From a virus (taxonomy: Duplodnaviria; Caudoviricetes), in IMG/VR virus record IMGVR_UViG_3300031867_000008, positions 76,957 through 140,956 of that record: a DNA stretch of 64,000 nt; one strand, 5' to 3'. Positions 36,899-61,582 of this stretch are shown piece by piece (positions within the stretch are counted from its first letter, which is position 1; each line of letters begins with the position of its first letter). Under the pieces are notes generated by a model that was not told the origin of the DNA, ran no database searches, and saw nothing but the letters and a program-made list of their open reading frames with translations. The position numbers were made by a program, and so were the translations under genes.

Positions 36899-36987
36899 TG
36901 GTGTTGGCAATAGGATTTGAACCTATAAATCTCTTGTACTTCGAGAACAGTGTTTACACTGCGCCTATGACATTTGGCTATACCAAC
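36899..36987 (-). tRNA. tRNA-Tyr-like gene with an aberrant anticodon loop (possible pseudogene)
   Basis: GTTGGTA/TGCCAAC acceptor plus ACCA, long variable arm, ATAGG-TTCAAAT-CCTAT; the anticodon arm CAGTGTAAACACTG lacks a 7-nt loop. Confidence 0.6.
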
Positions 36988-36994
36988 ATTTTAA

Positions 36995-37067
36995 TGCGCC
37001 TAATGGGACTCGAACCCATGCTCCCTTGATTAAAAGTCAAGTGCTTTACCAACTAAGCTATAAGCGC
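36995..37067 (-). tRNA. tRNA-Lys(TTT)
   Basis: Canonical cloverleaf, CTTGA-CTTTTAA-TCAAG. Confidence 0.93.
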
Positions 37068-37073
37068 ATAATC

Positions 37074-37494
37074 ACTAACCACACAACAGCTTTGTGGACA
37101 ACTAAACGATAACAAAACCAACTCGCAAAACCAATCTCAAAGATTTTCCTAAACTGTAATCTGTAAACTGTAACATTTCAACTTTAACTTCGGCAGCTCT
37201 TACAGGATATGAATTACACATAATCATAATAAAAGCCTATAAACTTTCAGCTTTGTAGCTTTAATTCTTAATCGTTAAGTGTTAAACTTTACAGAATCTA
37301 ATCTAAATAATTTTGCACCCAATGGTGGGACTTTAACCCACATACTCATATTTATCAGATATGCGCCTGTTACAATTCGGCTACATTGGAAGTAATCTTA
37401 ATAATTCCTTTTCATTAAGAACTATTATTATAGCATTATACTTACCCTGTATAATAAGGTGGTTTTAATTTATAGTTTTCGTTGTGCAGTTAGT
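37074..37494 (-). ncRNA. Candidate ~420-nt structured ncRNA with two heptamer arrays and an embedded tRNA-like element
   Basis: The 5' ACTAACTGCACAAC pairs fully (two G-U) with the 3' GTTGTGTGGTTAGT on the minus-strand RNA only; 7-nt periodic arrays at 37234-37290 and 37151-37192. Confidence 0.6.
37317..37390 (-). tRNA. tRNA-Ile(GAT)-like, non-canonical T loop
   Basis: TCCAATG/CATTGGG acceptor, CATAT-CTGATAA-ATATG, T loop TTAAAGT instead of TTCRANT. Confidence 0.65.
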
Positions 37495-37526
37495 AAATAG
37501 AAATATGAAATTAGCTCATTATCTCA

Positions 37527-38162
37527 TCAATACTCTACTGTAATCTTTGTCAGAGCATTACTTATACTAAGAGTAGCATCAACCTTGCTCATAAATGTAT
37601 CGGTTTCAGTAGAAAGGGATTCGATGATCTTTTCGCAACCAATGGGGTCAATGAGGTCAAGGGAATTATCCTCTATGAACTTCGCCTTTGCACTCTCGAT
37701 TACATCCTTATTAACTGACTCCTTGTTAGCGTAAGCTCTTTCAACATATGATATTGCCTTATCAGAGATGGTGTCATTTATAGCGTGAATATTTCTGGTA
37801 GCTATATTGTAATCAGCAGATACTTTATTGAGAAGCATTTCCTTGAACTCTATGCCACTACGCTTGTATTCAATAGCTTCTGCTACGGTCATTGAAACAT
37901 CGCCTATTGTTACAACAGTTGTTGCATTTGAATTGGTTACAGCTTTCTTGATAGCTGTTCTACGTTTAATTAGATCAGTTATCTTCGCATACTTAGCCTG
38001 AATAGTGGTCTTATAATCGTTAATTGCAATACCGTTTATCTTGGTGTTACAACGCTGGTTAAAATCAGCAAACTTGGCTTCTGAGATTTCCTTCTTAATT
38101 CTCTTGTCGAGAACTTTCAGCTCAGACAGTGCTTCGTGAATCGTCATAGTTTCAGTTGTCAT
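37527..38162 (-). CDS. Coiled-coil protein resembling the DIP1984/DUF6847 family
   Basis: MTIHEALSELK.LD.RI, SNATT.VTI...MTVAEAI, VD..LS.SNA.T.I motifs recalled for this family. Confidence 0.65.
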   Translation of the reverse strand: MTTETMTIHEALSELKVLDKRIKKEISEAKFADFNQRCNTKINGIAINDYKTTIQAKYAKITDLIKRRTAIKKAVTNSNATTVVTIGDVSMTVAEAIEYKRSGIEFKEMLLNKVSADYNIATRNIHAINDTISDKAISYVERAYANKESVNKDVIESAKAKFIEDNSLDLIDPIGCEKIIESLSTETDTFMSKVDATLSISNALTKITVEY

Positions 38163-38211: not shown

Positions 38212-38258
38212 ACACAATATATAGTATATGCTTCAATTTACATATCTATATATTGTAT
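38212..38258. promoter_or_regulatory. Tandem NrdR-box-like operator pair
   Basis: ACACAATATATAGTAT and TATCTATATATTGTAT, 31 bp apart, matching acaCwAtATaTwGtgt. Confidence 0.7.
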
Positions 38259-38338: not shown

Positions 38339-38677
38339 GTGAACAAAACTCAATCTCAAACCTTTACGAATAAATTTAGATCAGTTATTTCTATTTTTAT
38401 TCTGCCTTATCTGTGTGTACATCACAAACCGCCAGTCTGAGATTGAGCGTAGGTTTTCGGGGCGGGTTGTCCTACAACCCTACATCATCGAAGAAAACCA
38501 CTTGTGAACAAAACAGTCACGACCTTTCTTTTATATGATTGTGAATTATTTTCTTTTGTCTCAGCAGTATCTTTTGACTGTCCTACTACTGTTCGCAACA
38601 GCAAAAGACTTACCGAGACAAAAATTATAGGAGGTACACGATGAACAGAAAGCAGATCATCGTAAATTGGAGAAAAG

Positions 38678-38762
38678 CTGGGAAGGTGGGATTTGAACCC
38701 ACGACAGATAAATCATGCAGAGGTCAAAGCTCTGTGTGTTAAAACCACTTCACCACTTCCCA
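38678..38762 (-). tRNA. tRNA-Gln(TTG) with a 15-nt variable region
   Basis: TGGGAAG/CTTCCCA acceptor, CAGAG-CTTTGAC-CTCTG, variable region CATGATTTATCTGTC, GTGGG-TTCAAAT-CCCAC. Confidence 0.85.
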
Positions 38763-39341: not shown

Positions 39342-40259
39342 TTAATTATTGTTCTGATCGTTCTGAGCGTTCATAGCGTTAATCTTCTGCTCTTTCCACA
39401 ATTGATACCTTTCTTCATTTACAATTGTAAAATGGCTTATGGTTGCAGTGACTATCTCTTTGTAACTGATCGTAGAGTTTGTTTTGCTATTGTTTATATC
39501 CTCTGTTGCAAACACTCTAAAAAATTCCCCAGCTTGTATTATATTTGAAGAATTAAGTTTTATATTTGCTAATTTGTTAAGCATTCTTTTTATCGTTTTA
39601 ACATTCATTTTTTTTAGAATGTAATATTGGTCATTATAAGACTTGACCGTTCCTTTTTTCTGATTGTTAGCCCTTACATAAGTTGTTGCAGTTGCCAAGA
39701 GCATTATTTTATCTTTTATCAGTTGATTGTCTATCTTTACACCATTCGGCAATATAAATGTGTTCGTTATGTTCTTCGCAAAAATATTCGTTGCCTGCTC
39801 ATCGCTGCAACCGTAGTAGAGAAGATAGCCATATACTTCGGCAATCAAAAAATAGCTGGAATAATCGAAATCTCTCTTCTTACCATATGCGGCAATAGCT
39901 TTTTTAAATTCATTATATAATTCATTAGGATCAAACACGTAATTACTCTTACCCGAATCAATGACTGCCTTTTTTATATCGTTTTCGTTCAATAAATTGT
40001 ATTGAGGTCTTTTACAAAAAACTCTAAATTCGTTTATGAGTTTTCGGTCTTTACTATAGCATTCATAACTCACACGGTTTTCTTGAATGAATACCTCGTT
40101 AATCTCTTGCTCGTTGAAGTCCAACAAGCTACGTTTCTTATCTTTTTCGTATCCTGCAAAGATGTTGAATAATGCTTCTGCTCGTTTTTTTCGATGATCC
40201 TTTGTCAAATAGTTATTGATAAAATCTTCTTTCAACTCTTTATCATAAATTATTTTCAT
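39342..40259 (-). CDS. MrpR/YopR-like repressor (degenerate tyrosine-recombinase fold)
   Basis: N-terminus YDKELKEDFI...LFN.FAGYEK...RSLLDFN..EI and LLYYG core recall the SPbeta master repressor family; no R-K-H-R-H-Y catalytic set. Confidence 0.55.
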   Translation of the reverse strand: MKIIYDKELKEDFINNYLTKDHRKKRAEALFNIFAGYEKDKKRSLLDFNEQEINEVFIQENRVSYECYSKDRKLINEFRVFCKRPQYNLLNENDIKKAVIDSGKSNYVFDPNELYNEFKKAIAAYGKKRDFDYSSYFLIAEVYGYLLYYGCSDEQATNIFAKNITNTFILPNGVKIDNQLIKDKIMLLATATTYVRANNQKKGTVKSYNDQYYILKKMNVKTIKRMLNKLANIKLNSSNIIQAGEFFRVFATEDINNSKTNSTISYKEIVTATISHFTIVNEERYQLWKEQKINAMNAQNDQNNN

Positions 40260-40431
40260 TTTTAAAAGCCTACCTTTCATGTTAAAATGTCGGCAATAAT
40301 TCTTACACAATTATATAAGTATATACTTATAGTCTTGTTTATAATTATATACCAAAATAAGTAACAGTTTATAGATAGACTTTTATATAATGAAAAAGTA
40401 TGTTTTAAATGCTTGTTAATTGTGTTATAAT

Positions 40432-41891: not shown

Positions 41892-42797
41892 TTACTTTAT
41901 GGAAGAAATGTCAGGCAGTTTATTCTTGTTGCGATAATTGTAAACATCACAGATTGCCCTAACTACTCTATCTGTTTTGGTGAATGCGGCACTATCACTG
42001 TAAGAAGCCTTTACGATTTCAGCAACAGGCTTTTTGGAAAAGACTTTTACAAATTTATTTCTGTCAAACTTATCTCCGTAAAGATGGAAGAACTCACCCA
42101 TACCACCAATGAACGTTGCGCTGATTGAATCCTTATCATCTTTCCAAGTTTCTTTCATGAGTTTAAGCATTACGTTTGTGTTCTCTGAGCCTATAAGGTC
42201 GTATACCTTTTCAAAAGTGCTGACACACAAGATTCTTCTTTTACTGGTTGTCTTATCATAGTTCTTGCTTGTTGCAAGTATATAGCCTGCATCTGCACAA
42301 ACGTTAATCATGTCTTTTGCCTTGCTATCATATTCTTTACGAGAAGTCATGTGTTCTTCGGGTGTAAGTTTGGCACAGTTTTCATACTGCTCGTTGTAAT
42401 AGGCAGCTTCATCATCATAAGTAAGACCTGTGAGAACTCTTGCTGTAACGATATAATCTTCTCCAAATAACATTCTTAAAACTGTAAGAGTATGCTGTCC
42501 ATCAACCACATAATACTTACCGTTGCGCTTAGATACTACAATAGGCTTGACCTTATTCTTGTCGAACTTGCGAATGATTGACTTAATACGACTATCCTTT
42601 GTGTTCCTCTGATAAGGTGCGCTTAGAAGCATTTTTGCAGGCAGTTTTCTTATCTCCATGTCATCGCTCTTAGGGAAGTTGAGTTCTGTTGTCTCAGTTC
42701 CACTGTTGACATTAGATGTGGTGTCGTTCTTAATGGGTCTTGTCCCAGAGGGATCGAACTTTGCACTTACCTTAGTTCCTTTGATTACTGATTTCAT
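41892..42797 (-). CDS. ParB/Srx-fold protein (DUF6551-like)
   Basis: YQR....RI..I...FD...V.PIVVS.RNGKYYVVDGQHT. Confidence 0.75.
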   Translation of the reverse strand: MKSVIKGTKVSAKFDPSGTRPIKNDTTSNVNSGTETTELNFPKSDDMEIRKLPAKMLLSAPYQRNTKDSRIKSIIRKFDKNKVKPIVVSKRNGKYYVVDGQHTLTVLRMLFGEDYIVTARVLTGLTYDDEAAYYNEQYENCAKLTPEEHMTSRKEYDSKAKDMINVCADAGYILATSKNYDKTTSKRRILCVSTFEKVYDLIGSENTNVMLKLMKETWKDDKDSISATFIGGMGEFFHLYGDKFDRNKFVKVFSKKPVAEIVKASYSDSAAFTKTDRVVRAICDVYNYRNKNKLPDISSIK

Positions 42798-42836: not shown

Positions 42837-43814
42837 TCACAACTCGAAATAGTCAGTGATGTAATTGGCAAATTGTTTAATCTCGTCAAGAAGTTGACAA
42901 GCTATTTGTTTACTTTGTATGGTGATTTTTGGCTTACTTTCTTCTTCGATAGTATTACTTACCGAAAGTATAGCACTCCTGATATTGTCAATGGATAAAC
43001 GAGCTAAGTCTATATCGTTTAAACTTCTGTCTCGTTCTTCGTCATGCAAATCATCAATATAATCTTGAAGTGTTTTTGCTTCCTGTGTAGGACTATCATT
43101 TTCATTTATTGTTGCACATCTTTGACTTATCCTATGGATTCTGCGATAGAACTCACCCTTACAGGAATACTGTTTACGTATTTCCTCACGTTCTTTATCA
43201 GTCCATGAGTCAATCTGATTTACGAATCCGTTGCGCCTTATCGTAGACACCGAAATGTTATCCAACAGAATGTATAAGCATTCCAAATCATCTATTCTGC
43301 CCTGTTCTTCCAGTTCCCACATTTTTCTACCCACTAAGATATAATCTTCGTAACATTTCGCACACAGCAAATTGTTACTATCGTCTTTCTTGATTGAAAA
43401 TATATTTGGGAGATAAGGTAACAATTGCTTTCCTGTCAAATACATATCATGACCTTTTGGGTATGCTTTGCGGTAGCTTTCATAATACACATAAACAGCT
43501 TTGCAAAGTTCTTCCTTTGAACAGTCTCTATGATCGTAGTTCTTGATTATCTCTACTATAACTTCATCGTCATTTGAGCAATTGCACTTTGTAGCTTTGA
43601 TTTTTCCAAAGCCCTTAGCACCATTGTTATGAAGCTGTGCAAACGCTCTTACAGTATCAATGCCAGCTATGACATTATTATTAGTGTCAACCACTATTGG
43701 AGTATAATCGTTTTTATCCTCAGTGAGAGCGTTTATAAGTTCCGAAATGTCACGTTCATTGTAGATACGCTCATAAATATCGGGTATCTGTATCTCGTCT
43801 ATCGACAACTTCAT
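42837..43814 (-). CDS. Degenerate ParB N-terminal-domain protein
   Basis: MKLSIDEIQIP...ISELINAL......PIVVD.NNNVIAGID.VRA, without the canonical GxxR; start placed at ATG 43814. Confidence 0.55.
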   Translation of the reverse strand: MKLSIDEIQIPDIYERIYNERDISELINALTEDKNDYTPIVVDTNNNVIAGIDTVRAFAQLHNNGAKGFGKIKATKCNCSNDDEVIVEIIKNYDHRDCSKEELCKAVYVYYESYRKAYPKGHDMYLTGKQLLPYLPNIFSIKKDDSNNLLCAKCYEDYILVGRKMWELEEQGRIDDLECLYILLDNISVSTIRRNGFVNQIDSWTDKEREEIRKQYSCKGEFYRRIHRISQRCATINENDSPTQEAKTLQDYIDDLHDEERDRSLNDIDLARLSIDNIRSAILSVSNTIEEESKPKITIQSKQIACQLLDEIKQFANYITDYFEL

Positions 43815-45105
43815 GACGCTCATCTCCATTCTCTCCGTTAGTTTGCACATTATTATCATCTCCAACTGTGTCACTATCACTTACTACACTGTCATTGTCT
43901 GTTATATCATCAGTAACATTTGTCACATCAACGTCACTTATTATTTCAGTTTCGACTTCTTCTTCTTTGCTTTCGTTCTCGATCTCATTCAGGAAAGAAT
44001 AATCACCATTCTCCCAATCAAAATCGTCACCCTTGATTTCTTCCACAAGATCACACATTTTGTCACCAACCACATTTATAAGAGTTTGACAAATGATGTT
44101 TACTCTCGCTTCAACTTTCGTTTTCTTAGTAGTACCTTCCTTACAACCTTTTTCAGTGTACTCTTTCTGATACGTTTTAGTAACCCACTTGTAAAGCCAT
44201 TCCTCAAATTCTTCCTCACTAAATCTGCACTTAGCTACATTATGGAACAACAGCTTTCCACTTTGAATATTAAGGAATACTTTCATGCACATTACTAACG
44301 CTGGAATGTGGAGTTTTTTCAGATAAGATACACATTCTTCATCAGCAGGATAGTATTCATCGAGCTTGTTAAGTAACAGAGCAAGTTCATCAAGGTCTGA
44401 ATCCTTGTAATTATCCTTATAATACTCAGCAAACTTTATTATATCAGGCGAACCATAAGACTTAGTTTCATAGTCAGTCAACAGCATTAAGCACTCCAAA
44501 GCTACACCAAGTTTAGCATCTGTTTTACTGTTTGCAATTGAAGGAGCGCACCTATCCCAGAAAGGCAGATTAAGAATCTTTTCATCAAACTTCGGAGCAA
44601 TCTGAGTTCCGAGTGCCACTTTCGCTTTCTGCGTGGGCTTGAATGAAGTGCCACTGTTCAGACGAAGGAACTGTTCTTCAAGTTGTTCTTCATCATAATT
44701 AGTGATCTGAATTACTTCAAGAGTATAATGCAATATGAGAGTTTGTATTTTTTTATCAAGTTCGGAAAACTTTTTTCCTGCTACATCGTAAAATTCTCCT
44801 TTGTAATAAACAGGCTCAAAGGTCTTAGCCAATTTCCACTCATCATCAATGAATGAAAATATTGTACTTGTTCTCTGCTTACCATCAATGATTGTCCAAG
44901 TTCGGTCTGTGGGAGTGTCATTCACTATCACCCAGATTGAAGGTATAACAAAATTTCTAAGCATACTATCAATAAGAGCGTTCTTCTGCCCCCGATTCCA
45001 CTGTCCACCATCACGTTGTAAAGCATAATCGTCATTCATTTCACCATCATTGTGCATATTATAAAGTGATTCGATTGAATTTCTCACCAGTACAGTCGCT
45101 TCCAT
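43771..45105 (-). CDS. DUF262 (GmrS/ParB-like NTPase) domain protein
   Basis: LQR..GQW...QK..LIDSML....IP, IIDGKQRTSTI, F.RLNSG. The AAGGAG RBS and the promoter place the start at ATG 45105. Confidence 0.85.
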   Translation of the reverse strand: MEATVLVRNSIESLYNMHNDGEMNDDYALQRDGGQWNRGQKNALIDSMLRNFVIPSIWVIVNDTPTDRTWTIIDGKQRTSTIFSFIDDEWKLAKTFEPVYYKGEFYDVAGKKFSELDKKIQTLILHYTLEVIQITNYDEEQLEEQFLRLNSGTSFKPTQKAKVALGTQIAPKFDEKILNLPFWDRCAPSIANSKTDAKLGVALECLMLLTDYETKSYGSPDIIKFAEYYKDNYKDSDLDELALLLNKLDEYYPADEECVSYLKKLHIPALVMCMKVFLNIQSGKLLFHNVAKCRFSEEEFEEWLYKWVTKTYQKEYTEKGCKEGTTKKTKVEARVNIICQTLINVVGDKMCDLVEEIKGDDFDWENGDYSFLNEIENESKEEEVETEIISDVDVTNVTDDITDNDSVVSDSDTVGDDNNVQTNGENGDERHEVVDRRDTDTRYL

Positions 45106-45147
45106 TTTTATTATCTCCTTTCGGGATTTAGGTTTTTCATTGATATA

Positions 45148-45176
45148 ATTATAGCACATCTGCTCATGGTTGTCAA
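45148..45176 (-). promoter_or_regulatory. Sigma-A promoter for the DUF262/ParB operon
   Basis: TTGACA (45171-45176)-17 bp-TATAAT (45148-45153). Confidence 0.85.
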
Positions 45177-45195
45177 CAACCCTGAACATGATTGT

Positions 45196-45266
45196 TGTGA
45201 ATAATTTGTAAATTTTAAGCATCAACCAATTAGCAACTTGACACAATCTGCATTATAAGATATAAT
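45196..45266 (+). promoter_or_regulatory. Sigma-A promoter with upstream box, driving the RHH gene
   Basis: TGTGAATAATTTGTAAATTTT at 45196; TTGACA (45238-45243)-17 bp-TATAAT (45261-45266). Confidence 0.85.
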
Positions 45267-51673: not shown

Positions 51674-52579
51674 TTATATCTTAGTCCTTGCTATTCCCAT
51701 AGCTATCGAATTAGCTATCTTCCCAAAGTTGTCAATCTGCTTTACTATTTCGGGTTCTTCTTTTATACAGTCAGCATAAACCTCACGAGGAAGATTCTTT
51801 GCAACAATACCCATTTCTTTTGCGCCCCAGTTTTCGGGTAATATTCCCTCATCAACCAATTTTAAAAGTATCTTGTTTACACGAGCCTCAGTTACAATAG
51901 TTTCAGCAAGTGCTTTGTCTGCTTCGAGTTTAGCGAGAACGTCTGCGTCAGTCTGCTTAATTTTATTATGCTTGTGTGCCTTCGTTTCTACAAACTGCTC
52001 GCCAACTATTTTCAGATAAAACGGCTGACGACCATTAGAATCGTTAAGACGAGTTTGATTCTTGACAACGATTCCTTCCCCATATTCGCCGCCGAGTTCA
52101 GTCTTTCCAACAAAACTTATGCAATGTTCCCACGACTGAAACTCCCCCGTATAGAAGATCGGAACATAAGTTAAATCAAGTTTTGTTGCTATCTCAATGG
52201 CTTTTTCCTGCGGCAAATATTCACCCCTGTCTAAATCATAAAGATCGTAAGCGTAGAAGTTACCGTATTTATCATCGGGATATGGAACAGCATGAGATAC
52301 TAACCATTCTCCGAACAGGCAAAGATTGTCTCCGAGAATGTCTCTGACCTTATTTATATCAAGCCCTTGTGTAAACTCGAAGAATCCTCTGAGAGTATTC
52401 GTTGGGGTTAGAATCTGTTTTCTGCTTTGTGCAACAATGGAATCAGTCTCCCCGTCATAACGAATGGCTGCATTTGCACCATCAATTTTTTCTTCGATAT
52501 AGATTAAGTCTCCCTTCTGAAAACAAGACGAATTGTTTTCCTTTATTCTTTCAATATCCATAAATTTCTTGTGATACAT
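51674..52579 (-). CDS. RNA ligase (Rnl2-like nucleotidyltransferase)
   Basis: EEKIDGAN (motif I), LFGEW, FYAYD, EGIVVKN, LKIV. Confidence 0.88.
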   Translation of the reverse strand: MYHKKFMDIERIKENNSSCFQKGDLIYIEEKIDGANAAIRYDGETDSIVAQSRKQILTPTNTLRGFFEFTQGLDINKVRDILGDNLCLFGEWLVSHAVPYPDDKYGNFYAYDLYDLDRGEYLPQEKAIEIATKLDLTYVPIFYTGEFQSWEHCISFVGKTELGGEYGEGIVVKNQTRLNDSNGRQPFYLKIVGEQFVETKAHKHNKIKQTDADVLAKLEADKALAETIVTEARVNKILLKLVDEGILPENWGAKEMGIVAKNLPREVYADCIKEEPEIVKQIDNFGKIANSIAMGIARTKI

Positions 52580-52592
52580 ATTTATTTCTCCT

Positions 52593-52970
52593 TTATCTTA
52601 CATAGCAAATCCACAATACAATTATTTGTATGATGTGTACTATCTGATCTTGGCACAAGTTTATGATTAGTTTATTTGCTTTAGCATTATCAACTACTGC
52701 GTGAATAATCCAATTCGACACAAACAGAATTGCGAATAAGTATATGTTCATGTCGGAATGATGCGCCCAAAACAAAGGAACATGAATCATAAATGTCCAC
52801 GAAAATGCGTGTTCGATCAGAGCCATGATGTAATCATGCTTGTACAATTCTTTAGGCGCATTATCTGCCCACCACTGCTTTTGCTTCATCTGTGCCAGTA
52901 TACCTTGCAAATAATAATCGTCTACTATATGCAAGAATATCATTGACAATAGCAGAATTATATTGCTCAT
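52593..52970 (-). CDS. DUF3307-like membrane protein
   Basis: HIVDDYYLQ, IHAVVD..K, DQIVH. Confidence 0.75.
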   Translation of the reverse strand: MSNIILLLSMIFLHIVDDYYLQGILAQMKQKQWWADNAPKELYKHDYIMALIEHAFSWTFMIHVPLFWAHHSDMNIYLFAILFVSNWIIHAVVDNAKANKLIINLCQDQIVHIIQIIVLWICYVR

Positions 52971-52973
52971 TTG

Positions 52974-53804
52974 TTATTCCTCCTCAAATTTTATCCTACT
53001 TTCAATATAACTCCTATCCTGTGTAAAAATAGGAATCTCGTTGTCAATTATCCAACCGTCATCAGTTTTAACACAACATGATCCACGCTTAAATTTGGGC
53101 GGTACGTCATTCCAATTTATTCCCTTTTCAAGCATGAGCATATCCTGAATCTGACTACAATTCTTTCCTTCAAGCTGTCTCTGGGAAAAATGTTTCTGAC
53201 CCAATCCTTGAACAGAATTTCTTATAGCATCTTGCTGTCTCCATATTAAGCAATTGCATACTTCTTCTTTAGGAATATTAAATACACGAGAATCGAAAGT
53301 GGCTTGATTTATTTTTGTAGACACATACTTTTTATATCTTTCATAATCGTCTTGACGTTCCGGCAAAACTTCATCACCAATATTGTCAGCTTTAGGATCG
53401 TAGCAACAATCAAACATGGCGTCCTGTGTAATTCCAGCGAATATTCGATTGAATGCCAATGTTGCAAGACTTGCCGATACACTACACATTTTTTGAATAT
53501 TGTCATCGAACCATGCTGATGTAGTTATCTTCTTGTAATCACACAACACAAGTGTTATTTCGTCGGACTGAGTATATCCAAGTACGCAGTTCTGAATGTT
53601 TTCGCAAAGATACTTCATTGTGTTCTGCATACTCTTACAAAGTATTTCATCATACGGCTTATCCATTCCTCGTGTAAAGGTGTGGAAATGACAGCCATCC
53701 AGTCTGATGATTACAGGAGTCCTGCGTGTTAAATGTGTGCGAGTCACGTTCTCGTAAGTTTTCATTCGGTCGCCGAGACTATCTCTTTTATTATTTTTTG
53801 CCAT
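52974..53804 (-). CDS. tRNA-His guanylyltransferase Thg1-like protein (3'-5' polymerase)
   Basis: DRMK.YE, IIRLDG..FHTFT, YTQSDEI, FDSR, WRQQDA.RNS, NWND.P..FKRG. Confidence 0.92.
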   Translation of the reverse strand: MAKNNKRDSLGDRMKTYENVTRTHLTRRTPVIIRLDGCHFHTFTRGMDKPYDEILCKSMQNTMKYLCENIQNCVLGYTQSDEITLVLCDYKKITTSAWFDDNIQKMCSVSASLATLAFNRIFAGITQDAMFDCCYDPKADNIGDEVLPERQDDYERYKKYVSTKINQATFDSRVFNIPKEEVCNCLIWRQQDAIRNSVQGLGQKHFSQRQLEGKNCSQIQDMLMLEKGINWNDVPPKFKRGSCCVKTDDGWIIDNEIPIFTQDRSYIESRIKFEEE

Positions 53805-55086: not shown

Positions 55087-56082
55087 TCAGAAAAATCTAG
55101 TCTGCGTTCCTGTCTCGTAAATTAGTTCTTTGTCAGCTTCAATAACTAATTCAACAGCATCTTTTCCGAGATTCATTTGAGAAATGACTTTCGAGAAAAT
55201 CTCCTGTTGATCTCTCATGTAATGCGTTTGAGTTAGTTTAAGACTGCTGTGCTGAAAATAACTGGATAACAGCATAGAACTAAAATATTCATCCGCAACG
55301 TCAGCAAGAGATTTGTCATGTTTTAAAACCTGTCTGAACCAATAAGAAAAGGTCTGTCTTATAGTATAAGATGAATAATGACCTTTAATATTAGCAGTTT
55401 CGGCGCAAGCCTTTAAGTGTCTGCTAATGCTATCCGTGTCAATAGGTTTGCGGAGTTTAATAAATCCATCCGTGTCATTTAAAATAACATTTTTATCACA
55501 AACGATAGAACCTTTTTCTGAGTAAGCAAACATAAGCCCTTTTTTCTTGTGAGCGTTATCCTGATGCCACAGCCTATCATTTTCCTTTTCAAGAAAAACA
55601 AAACTGTTCCTGCGGTTTTTTCCATTGACGAATACAAAATCGTCATCAGAAAATAAAGTACCCGCCGTTTTCTTACGTTTCTTGTACCAAGACAGTGTAG
55701 ATTTGACAGTCTCGTTTAGATTAACCATTGTCGTTTTACCCGTCTTGTGTTCAGGCATAGCAAATACTGACATTAAACTGCCGTCAGCGTTCTCTATCAA
55801 CTTCCAACGCCAAGCAAGTATATCCACTGGACGATAACCTGTATTGATTCCGACTATAAAGAAAGCCAAAGTATCAATGTCATTATTGTTATACAGTTCC
55901 AAAACCATATCATTTATATCCGATTCATCTTTCAAAGCATCTGCCGAATGAAGTTCCTTTGAATACTCTTCTTCCGATACTATATTGATAGACAGTCTAT
56001 CTTTTTTTGGCTTATCTTCTCTTCGTGTCATCTCAATAAGAGAACTCAATTCAATATTTTTTGCTGTACTGTTCATTGTCAT
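55087..56082 (-). CDS. Tyrosine recombinase/integrase (catalytic domain)
   Basis: NTGYRPVDIL (R), EHKTGK (K), SYTIRQTF (xxxR), FQHSS (H), THY (Y). Confidence 0.85.
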   Translation of the reverse strand: MTMNSTAKNIELSSLIEMTRREDKPKKDRLSINIVSEEEYSKELHSADALKDESDINDMVLELYNNNDIDTLAFFIVGINTGYRPVDILAWRWKLIENADGSLMSVFAMPEHKTGKTTMVNLNETVKSTLSWYKKRKKTAGTLFSDDDFVFVNGKNRRNSFVFLEKENDRLWHQDNAHKKKGLMFAYSEKGSIVCDKNVILNDTDGFIKLRKPIDTDSISRHLKACAETANIKGHYSSYTIRQTFSYWFRQVLKHDKSLADVADEYFSSMLLSSYFQHSSLKLTQTHYMRDQQEIFSKVISQMNLGKDAVELVIEADKELIYETGTQTRFF

Positions 56083-61535: not shown

Positions 61536-61582
61536 ATACAATATATAGTGTTATAAATTCATGGTTGTACTATATATTGTAT
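61536..61582. promoter_or_regulatory. Tandem NrdR-box-like operator pair
   Basis: ATACAATATATAGTGT and GTACTATATATTGTAT, 31 bp apart. Confidence 0.7.

Follow-up and report, generated by a model that had tools for sequence, protein, structure and literature searches.

Short RNA units at fixed spacing are read by identical protein subunits in the TRAP/trp leader and HutP/hut leader systems of Bacillus, and the HutP sites (UAG plus 4 nt) recur with a 7-nt period in two sets. CsrA and RsmE are small symmetric dimers, and their sponge RNAs, CsrB and RsmZ, repeat a short motif a dozen times or more. In type III toxin-antitoxin systems (ToxIN-like), the gene for an endoribonuclease toxin is preceded by repeats of about 36 nt in tandem, and ROOL and GOLLD are large, ornate RNAs that are often found in phages near tRNA genes. 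The protein Ro60 (Rsr) is accompanied by bacterial Y RNAs such as YrlA, which are encoded beside the protein gene, are closed at their ends by a long helix and sometimes contain a tRNA-shaped module (PMC4201824). Here, a locus that recalls parts of each of these systems is described from a Caudoviricetes phage, in a 64,000-nt stretch (hereafter the window; positions 76,957 to 140,956 of IMG/VR record IMGVR_UViG_3300031867_000008, a complete virus record of 140,956 bp with terminal repeats). The locus consists of a gene for a 211-aa helical protein (37527–38162, minus strand) and, directly behind it, a structured RNA of 421 nt (37074–37494, minus strand). Comparative analysis and structure prediction suggest, with a probability of about 0.6, that the small helical protein and its own structured RNA form a dedicated protein-RNA particle, and that the pair belongs to a large, essentially uncatalogued module.

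The RNA was delimited from its sequence, its fold and a family alignment, and its length includes an embedded tRNA. Its 5' end (37494) lies 32 nt past the stop codon of the 211-aa gene and its 3' end is at 37074. An earlier note on this DNA had proposed a closed, strand-specific RNA of about 420 nt after the gene, and such an RNA was confirmed in the sequence, with G-U pairs in its helices and with its features at the positions proposed. The closing helix P1 joins the 5' arm ACUAACUGCACAACG (37480–37494) to the 3' arm UGUUGUGUGGUUAGU (37074–37088) over 15 bp, of which three are G-U pairs (two within the 14 nt of the earlier note), and these G-U pairs make P1 strand-specific. This helix was present in the minimum-free-energy fold of a 432-nt stretch (z = -3.3 against shuffles). 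Inside P1, the 5' junction strand (37460–37477) contains AACUA (37477–37473), which pairs with UAGUU (37104–37100), and UAAAACCA (37467–37460), which pairs with UGGUUUUG (37120–37113); both segments thus pair into the 3' domain. The 3' domain (37089–37147) begins with AAAUC, continues through P3 (CUUUG at 37142–37138 with CAAAG at 37094–37090), UGG/CCA (37133–37131/37097–37095) and GCGA/UCGU (37126–37123/37109–37106), and ends with the C (37089) of a conserved CUG; the loop and the 3' tail of the GCGA/UCGU element receive the 5' junction strand. The 5' domain contains a putative H-type pseudoknot (37435–37459), in which CCU/AGG (37459–37457/37448–37446) is crossed by AUUAUAC/GUAUAAU (37455–37449/37441–37435). 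The fold also places a hairpin, UCUUAAU ... AUUAAGA (37396–37420), in a variable region that is different in each lineage. All of these elements are on the minus strand. The earlier statement that no open reading frame (ORF) lies here was not correct, because a mechanical ORF of 41 aa (37227–37102) runs inside the RNA.

The window RNA can be aligned end to end with 29 non-redundant relatives, and the structure counts given here refer to these 30 RNAs, window included. The seed alignments had 358–588 columns, and the structure was scored by anchored pair counts and an alignment-free duplex test, not by a full-length covariance model. Across P1 and P3 together, 95.7% of cells were paired, compared with 64.9% in shuffles, and both sides changed in 18 of 22 pairs; the covariation score was 0.70, vs. 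0.20 in shuffles, and it did not exceed 0.17 when the registers were slid by 1–3 columns. P1 alone showed changes on both sides in 15 of its 17 pairs, with 94% of cells paired, and P3 alone was 100% paired in all 30 RNAs, with changes on both sides in all three of its variable pairs. G-U pairs were frequent (the junction pair is G-U in 26 of 30 RNAs), which indicates that the RNA strand is the strand of the gene. The complementarity of the two junction helices is visible by eye in nearly all members, and these helices were tested without alignment because the raw MAFFT alignments put them out of register in many rows (64–67% paired as aligned). The 22 nt after P1 bound their own 3' domain with a mean of -11.5 kcal/mol and the 3' domains of other members with -8.2 kcal/mol (permutation p <= 5e-5); for the window, the values were -12.3 kcal/mol with its own partner and -7.0 +/- 2.2 kcal/mol with foreign partners. 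Each of the long-range helices, closing and nested, that the earlier note had proposed covaries. P3 is crossed by the junction helices. For the H-type pseudoknot in the 5' domain, the same arrangement was seen with different sequences in the majority of the members of alignments A2 to A5. Judged from these pairing patterns, the RNA core is doubly knotted, by the junction helices that cross P3 and by the putative 5' pseudoknot, which was recognized by eye. The parts follow the same order in related loci, namely a lineage-specific closing helix, GAAAAC, the variable region, CUGUAAAG, the two heptamer arrays and AAAUCC ... GGCUG, and three core stretches (GAAAAC, AAAUC, and GCUG) are invariant and unpaired.

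The RNA is inherited together with the gene. Relatives of the 211-aa protein were taken from IMG/VR at 29–52% identity. When the spacer of the window was searched with blastn, array 1 (query 217–289, about 37310–37238) recurred approximately 200–300 nt past a homologous gene at many loci. A strict pattern of the 3' domain, which required a fully paired 5-bp helix and therefore gives lower bounds, was found after the homologous gene at no fewer than 57 of 80 IMG/VR loci (at least 57), always on the strand of the gene and 230–400 nt past its stop codon; its sole match in the window was at 37146–37087. The strict pattern misses the versions in SP15, Lysinibacillus, Bacillus, and Moorena, which are plainly the same RNA. 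A covarying closing helix of 8–16 bp, anchored at the conserved junction, was detected in 52 of the 57 pattern-positive loci, so that conservation downstream of homologs holds both for the closing helix and, in the 30 RNAs, for the heptamer periodicity. The gene was found in 722 records of named phages, including T5-like Escherichia and Salmonella phages, Vibrio phage pVp-1, Lactococcus phage 949, and Bacillus, Klebsiella, Erwinia, and Pseudomonas phages, and also in genomes of Bacillota, cyanobacteria, and others; the protein forms more than 1,300 clusters in a large protein collection. The RNA was likewise found in T5-like SP15, Vibrio phage pVp-1, and bacterial genomes. Its T5-type stretch is conserved in 451 records, nearly all of which have no annotation there. 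In Escherichia phage SP15 (NC_048627, about 41.8–42.26 kb; L083:5502–5943), for example, the RNA lies in an unannotated stretch of about 440 nt that follows gp139, the “tail fiber protein”. A nucleotide search of the window region against named phages returned tRNA-sized matches only. The reality of the RNA and its linkage to the gene are secure. As a separate observation, the modules of a Bathyarchaeia metagenome-assembled genome (L121) and of the Brevibacillus fortis chromosome (L120) are very alike, terminator included, which suggests either contamination of the assembled genome or recent transfer.

Between the variable region and the 3' domain, the window RNA contains two heptamer arrays on the minus strand. 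A CUGUAA lead-in and array 1, with eight units, occupy 37234–37294 (array itself 37290–37234), and a second CUGUAA lead-in and array 2, with six units, occupy 37151–37205 (array itself 37192–37151). The two 7-nt-periodic arrays of about 14 units that had been noted earlier were borne out by a lag-7 autocorrelation of 0.54 in each (shuffle p of 2e-4 for array 1 and 3e-4 for array 2), and 10 of the 12 strongest 60-nt segments for lag-7 signal in the 64 kb fall at 37121–37241. The register is conserved, with an A that is invariant every 7 nt across the 30 RNAs and a unit consensus of n-U(88%)-Y-A(100%)-A(89%)-a(68%)-g(65%). Array 1 has 7–9 units and array 2 has 4–6 units in the family. In the alignment, array 2 of the window falls on that of the family; a spacer of about 40 nt ahead of it and the second CUGUAA lead-in are found in the window only. 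A conserved duplex between the two arrays was rejected, as its signal was only marginal (-9.9 vs. -9.0 kcal/mol, p = 0.025, z = -0.85 against shuffles). The arrays are probably displayed unpaired between the clamped ends of the RNA. The region is AT-rich and lies within the replication module of the phage, as would be expected if the repeats acted as DNA (iterons, packaging or recombination sites) or had arisen by chance in the AT-rich spacer of a tRNA cluster. However, such an origin is hardly credible and is already contradicted, because covariation keeps the pairs and not the sequence, many of the G-U pairs would be C-A on the other strand, the orientation to the gene is fixed in all loci, and the periodicity is far beyond that of shuffles.

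The arrays resemble the TRAP and HutP targets in that repeated units stand at fixed spacing, and the HutP sites also in the 7-nt period and the arrangement in two sets. In contrast to those targets, the conserved core of the unit is U-Y-A-A and not NAG, with G in only 65% of units, and the phage RNA, instead of serving as an attenuator ahead of an operon, forms a knotted molecule of its own behind the gene. A type III toxin-antitoxin system was considered and rejected, given that the units are 7 nt long and located downstream of the gene, and that the protein has no match in PADLOC.

The 211-aa gene, whose product is the presumed partner of the RNA, was identified as an ORF with a match to PHROG 1491 and is present in one copy in the 141-kb genome. 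The match to phrog_1491 is strong (E 9e-51), and the PHROG label “tail fiber protein” is without support here; no match to the protein was found in Pfam, NCBIfam, or PADLOC. In a profile of 47 relatives, the invariant motif (SNAvT ... MTVAEAIE) aligned with RTNSVTEF ... MTLADAL of PDB 3KDQ at E 0.08. This entry, a crystal structure, is annotated only as an uncharacterized conserved protein and is that of the DIP1984 protein. The SNAxT motif is present twice in the 211-aa protein, and two of the 47 relatives touch DUF6847 (PF20935) at E of about 0.003. The DIP1984/DUF6847-like label of the earlier note is thus backed by a weak profile match over the signature motif only, and not by a Pfam or NCBIfam match. 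From the signature motif only, the protein appears to be remotely related to DIP1984-like proteins, and no more. Nothing relevant to DIP1984/DUF6847 was found in the literature searched. The AlphaFold2 model (predicted local distance difference test score, pLDDT, of 88) shows a bundle of helices to which small strands are added. In Foldseek and in two VIA-align searches, only generic helical bundles (such as syntaxin and 14-3-3) were listed, with a best Z of 9.0 that lies below the meaningful level for helical proteins, and 3KDQ was not listed.

A prediction with four copies of the protein reached a score of 0.55, compared with 0.00 for the best control. This mark is reached by 20 of 30 proteins solved as same-chain pairs vs. 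1 of 23 solved as single chains, counts that are only roughly applicable here, where a custom alignment and four copies instead of two were supplied. Contact agreement between the four-copy runs was at least 81% and partner pLDDT at least 83. The sole predicted interface, between copies 3 and 4, is symmetric (two-fold), and the model supports a symmetric dimer, not a ring. The earlier note had envisaged a ring by analogy with TRAP, in which a closed ring of protein would wrap the arrays with one unit per subunit. Such an assembly would be in keeping with the fairly constant unit numbers (7–9 plus 4–6) and with the clamping of both ends of the array loop by the core. Nevertheless, it is very unlikely, since only one two-fold interface was predicted when four copies were supplied, and since the elongated helical bundle of the protein differs from TRAP and HutP, which form 11-mer and hexamer rings, respectively, and neither of whose folds was among the structure matches. 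The predicted symmetric dimer and an RNA with many copies of a short motif are also reminiscent of CsrA/RsmE with CsrB/RsmZ. On the other hand, the phage RNA does not present GGA in hairpin loops, the protein fold is another one, and the RNA locus immediately follows the gene of the protein, with which it is co-inherited. The anti-retron protein Rad of T5 and SP15 was also considered as a candidate for the same protein and was rejected, as Rad, with 189 aa and a Toprim-like domain, is another protein (bioRxiv 10.1101/2023.03.15.532788).

The variable loop of the window RNA hosts a tRNA-Ile(GAU) gene (37317–37390, minus strand), which was identified by both Rfam (tRNA, RF00005, 53.8 bits; threshold 29) and ARAGORN, the latter giving a 7-bp acceptor stem and 5-bp anticodon and T stems. 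A canonical elbow has G18 G19 in the D loop and T54 psi55 C56 in the T loop; the elbow of this tRNA is non-canonical, with the T loop UUAAAGU, a D loop without GG, and a D stem of 3 bp. The mutated T loop that the earlier note had remarked was therefore present, whereas its description of a merely tRNA-like element fell short of a full tRNA-Ile(GAU) gene. Five lineages carry a tRNA in the variable loop, namely the window (Ile), L002 (Gln), L056, L068 (Thr), and, as a fifth independent case, L160 from the cyanobacterium Moorena producens 3L, in which a tRNA-shaped insert (L160:2170–2260) with a canonical GGTTCAAATCC T arm is located in the same loop. The closest protein relative (57% identity) has an RNA without an embedded tRNA, which suggests that the insertion is recent and the loop permissive. 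The embedded tRNA is a genuine gene inserted in the variable loop and not a built-in module. The phage RNA is similar to Y RNAs in the long helix of its 5' and 3' ends, the adjacent protein gene, and the tRNA-shaped part; it differs from them in that the tRNA is a real gene found in a few lineages only, and Y RNAs do not contain heptamer arrays. Furthermore, TROVE/Ro60 (PF05731) was not found in the complete 141-kb genome, whereas the control genomes gave matches.

A tRNA-Lys(UUU) gene (36994–37068, minus strand; Rfam and ARAGORN) starts about 5 nt past the 3' arm of the RNA. Among 31 non-redundant members, a tRNA starts 4–12 nt past the RNA in eight, including the window, and a same-strand tRNA is located within 3 kb in 26. 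Elsewhere, in pVp-1 and several bacterial loci, a terminator-like hairpin followed by a T run was observed by eye after the RNA. On these grounds, RNase P acting at tRNA-Lys likely defines the 3' end of the window RNA. Processing of the tRNAs would probably cut the window RNA into two base-paired pieces: RNase P and tRNA 3' processing would release tRNA-Ile and tRNA-Lys and leave behind two stretches of the RNA, one of about 104 nt and the other of about 243 nt, which P1 and the junction helices would keep joined. The window is thus a natural case of a tRNA gene inside a structured RNA, and it predicts an RNA that is assembled from two processed pieces. Such processing also bears on whether the RNA is a cis-acting 3' untranslated region that stabilizes the mRNA or feeds back on it, e.g., by soaking up excess protein. 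The RNA starts only 32 nt past the stop codon, the spacer has no promoter-like site and is short in the relatives too, which fits this explanation. However, an RNA of 260–430 nt with a double knot and 12–14 units is far more elaborate than known 3' stabilizers, and tRNA processing in the window should sever it from the mRNA, which makes a purely cis-acting role distinctly improbable.

Rfam 15, ROOL and GOLLD included, contained no characterized family that matches the RNA; tRNA was the only match at the gathering threshold, both in the window (37069–37526) and in 10 related loci. At E <= 10, the window gave chance-level matches only, and RAGATH-27 (RF03100) was not among them. With permissive settings, the whole RAGATH-27 model was matched by the 5'-most 86 nt of the RNA in one relative (L004) with 59.3 bits (E 1.4e-7), below the threshold of 76.1 bits, and this match spans the 5' arm of P1, the GAAAAC junction, and the pseudoknot hairpin. 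RAGATH-27 is an orphan Rfam motif whose function is unassigned. Its Rfam model consists of one hairpin, a single element of the 5' domain, and includes neither the partner of the closing helix nor the arrays, the 3' domain, or a link to a protein. From this sequence match, RAGATH-27 is probably a catalogued fragment of the 5' domain of the heptamer RNA family in one sub-lineage. RAGATH-27 is not mentioned in the literature text searched, and the main text of the 2017 Weinberg paper does not contain it; nothing relevant to T5 non-coding RNAs was found in the literature searched. The phage RNA shares with ROOL and GOLLD an ornate structure and a place near phage tRNA genes, but it has no match to them in Rfam at any threshold used, is smaller, and has a fixed protein neighbor.

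We propose that the protein gene and the RNA are co-transcribed. P1, the two junction helices, P3, and the putative 5' pseudoknot jointly clamp the ends of a long loop. The clamped loop displays two runs of 7-nt units (n-U-Y-A-A-a-g; eight plus six in the window) outside any conserved duplex. The upstream protein would act as a symmetric dimer, several copies of which may bind the units at the fixed 7-nt spacing and so build a defined particle. If the arrays were folded back on each other by the hairpin or spacer that separates them, each two-fold dimer might bridge one unit of each array. Binding of the heptamers by the protein is the best explanation, if an unproven one, because the gene and the RNA are co-inherited across hosts, the unit consensus is independent of the host, the number of units is defined, and a dimer is predicted.

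Several points weigh against a protein-RNA particle of this kind. The invariant motif (residues 91–98) lies within the predicted dimer interface and may serve dimerization, not RNA contact, and no recognizable RNA-binding fold emerged from the structure searches, which gave generic helical bundles only. With a predicted dimer, one subunit per heptamer would need further stacking, which was not predicted. The elbow of tRNA-Ile is non-canonical, and processing by RNase P is therefore not certain. In addition, gene linkage is by itself compatible also with an RNA that works without the protein. The RNA may accordingly be independent of its neighbor and follow the gene through co-transcription only; it might, for example, bind a ligand, act as a ribozyme, or titrate a host factor as a sponge or decoy. 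Its invariant unpaired stretches and two pseudoknots, as found in ribozymes and riboswitches, would suit this role, as would a protein without a known RNA-binding fold and the resemblance of the 5' domain of a relative to the orphan motif RAGATH-27. Yet the pairing of gene and RNA has been kept from T5-like phages to Bacillota and cyanobacteria, at 30–50% protein identity, and the heptamer consensus is unchanged among hosts with few RNA-binding proteins in common, an indication of a co-inherited partner. An independent RNA is thus a possible but unlikely alternative to a particle formed with the 211-aa protein.

For the particle, a role in RNA or tRNA metabolism during infection is a guess, made because the module sits in tRNA arrays beside tRNA-repair genes. 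A more specific idea is that the 7-nt units mimic the anticodon loops of UUR-reading leucine tRNAs, so that the RNA would be a multi-site decoy or sensor for enzymes that attack or modify anticodon loops. The unit n-U-Y-A-A-a-g resembles UUCAAAA and CUUAAAA, the loops of the phage's own tRNA-Leu(CAA) and tRNA-Leu(UAA), and such mimicry, if true, would explain the place of the module in phage tRNA arrays beside tRNA-repair genes. However, tRNA-Leu(UAA/CAA) was not enriched beside the module (5 of 33 nearest neighbors vs. 9 of 95 of all nearby tRNAs), which leaves likeness of sequence as the ground for the idea, and we consider it a highly speculative one. If the 211-aa protein and the RNA do form a particle, then relatives of T5, hundreds of large phages, Bacillota, and cyanobacteria carry an unrecognized ribonucleoprotein, whose RNA matches the known large bacterial RNAs in ornateness and follows an unusual design in which a knotted clamp displays a ruler of 7-nt sites. 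This would also provide a function-level handle on RAGATH-27 and on the uncharacterized DIP1984-like proteins. Since T5-type phages carry the module, it can be tested directly in Escherichia coli.

The genes that flank the RNA locus are all on the minus strand, and the neighborhood is a replication and nucleotide module with a DnaB-like helicase, a RecD2-like helicase, a DHH protein, and a sliding clamp. The tRNA array (39007 to 36592, minus strand; Rfam and ARAGORN) has the order Leu(UAA), Gln, Pro, the 211-aa gene, Ile(GAU), Lys, an odd 89-nt tRNA, and Leu(CAA). The odd tRNA (36899–36987, minus strand; Rfam 39.5 bits) has an anticodon that was left unassigned by ARAGORN, and the tRNA-Gln(UUG) (38677–38762, minus strand) is also unusual, with 86 nt and a long extra stretch after the anticodon arm. 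A tyrosine-recombinase-like ORF (39342–40310, minus strand) directly borders the tRNA array, and a second one is located at 55087–56082 (minus strand); one of the two has an MrpR-type core-binding domain and the other belongs to the phage integrase family. The phage that carries the tRNA array also encodes a tRNA-repair-like pair (51674–53804, minus strand), in which an RNA ligase (PF09414, E 2e-25) adjoins a Thg1-like tRNA-His guanylyltransferase (PF04446, E 5e-30).

An NrdR-box-like pair (38212–38258) was located by pattern match between tRNA-Pro and the 211-aa gene, the NrdR operator being defined by two 16-bp boxes (acaCwAtATaTwGtgt) that are approximately 31–32 bp apart. The box at 38212–38227 has one mismatch to ACACWATATATWGTGT, and its partner at 38243–38258, 31 bp off, has four mismatches by eye; 2.6 matches with three or fewer mismatches are expected by chance per window. 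Of the pair to which the earlier note had pointed, one good box therefore stands and the second is weak. A better NrdR-box-like pair (one and three mismatches, 31 bp apart) was observed at 61536–61582, just upstream of a minus-strand ORF (61516–61160) without a Pfam match. Three further minus-strand ORFs were noted in the window, at 41892–42797 (DUF6551), 42837–43880 (no Pfam match), and 43771–45246, the last of which has a GmrSD N-terminal domain that is familiar from type IV restriction enzymes and is here encoded by a phage.

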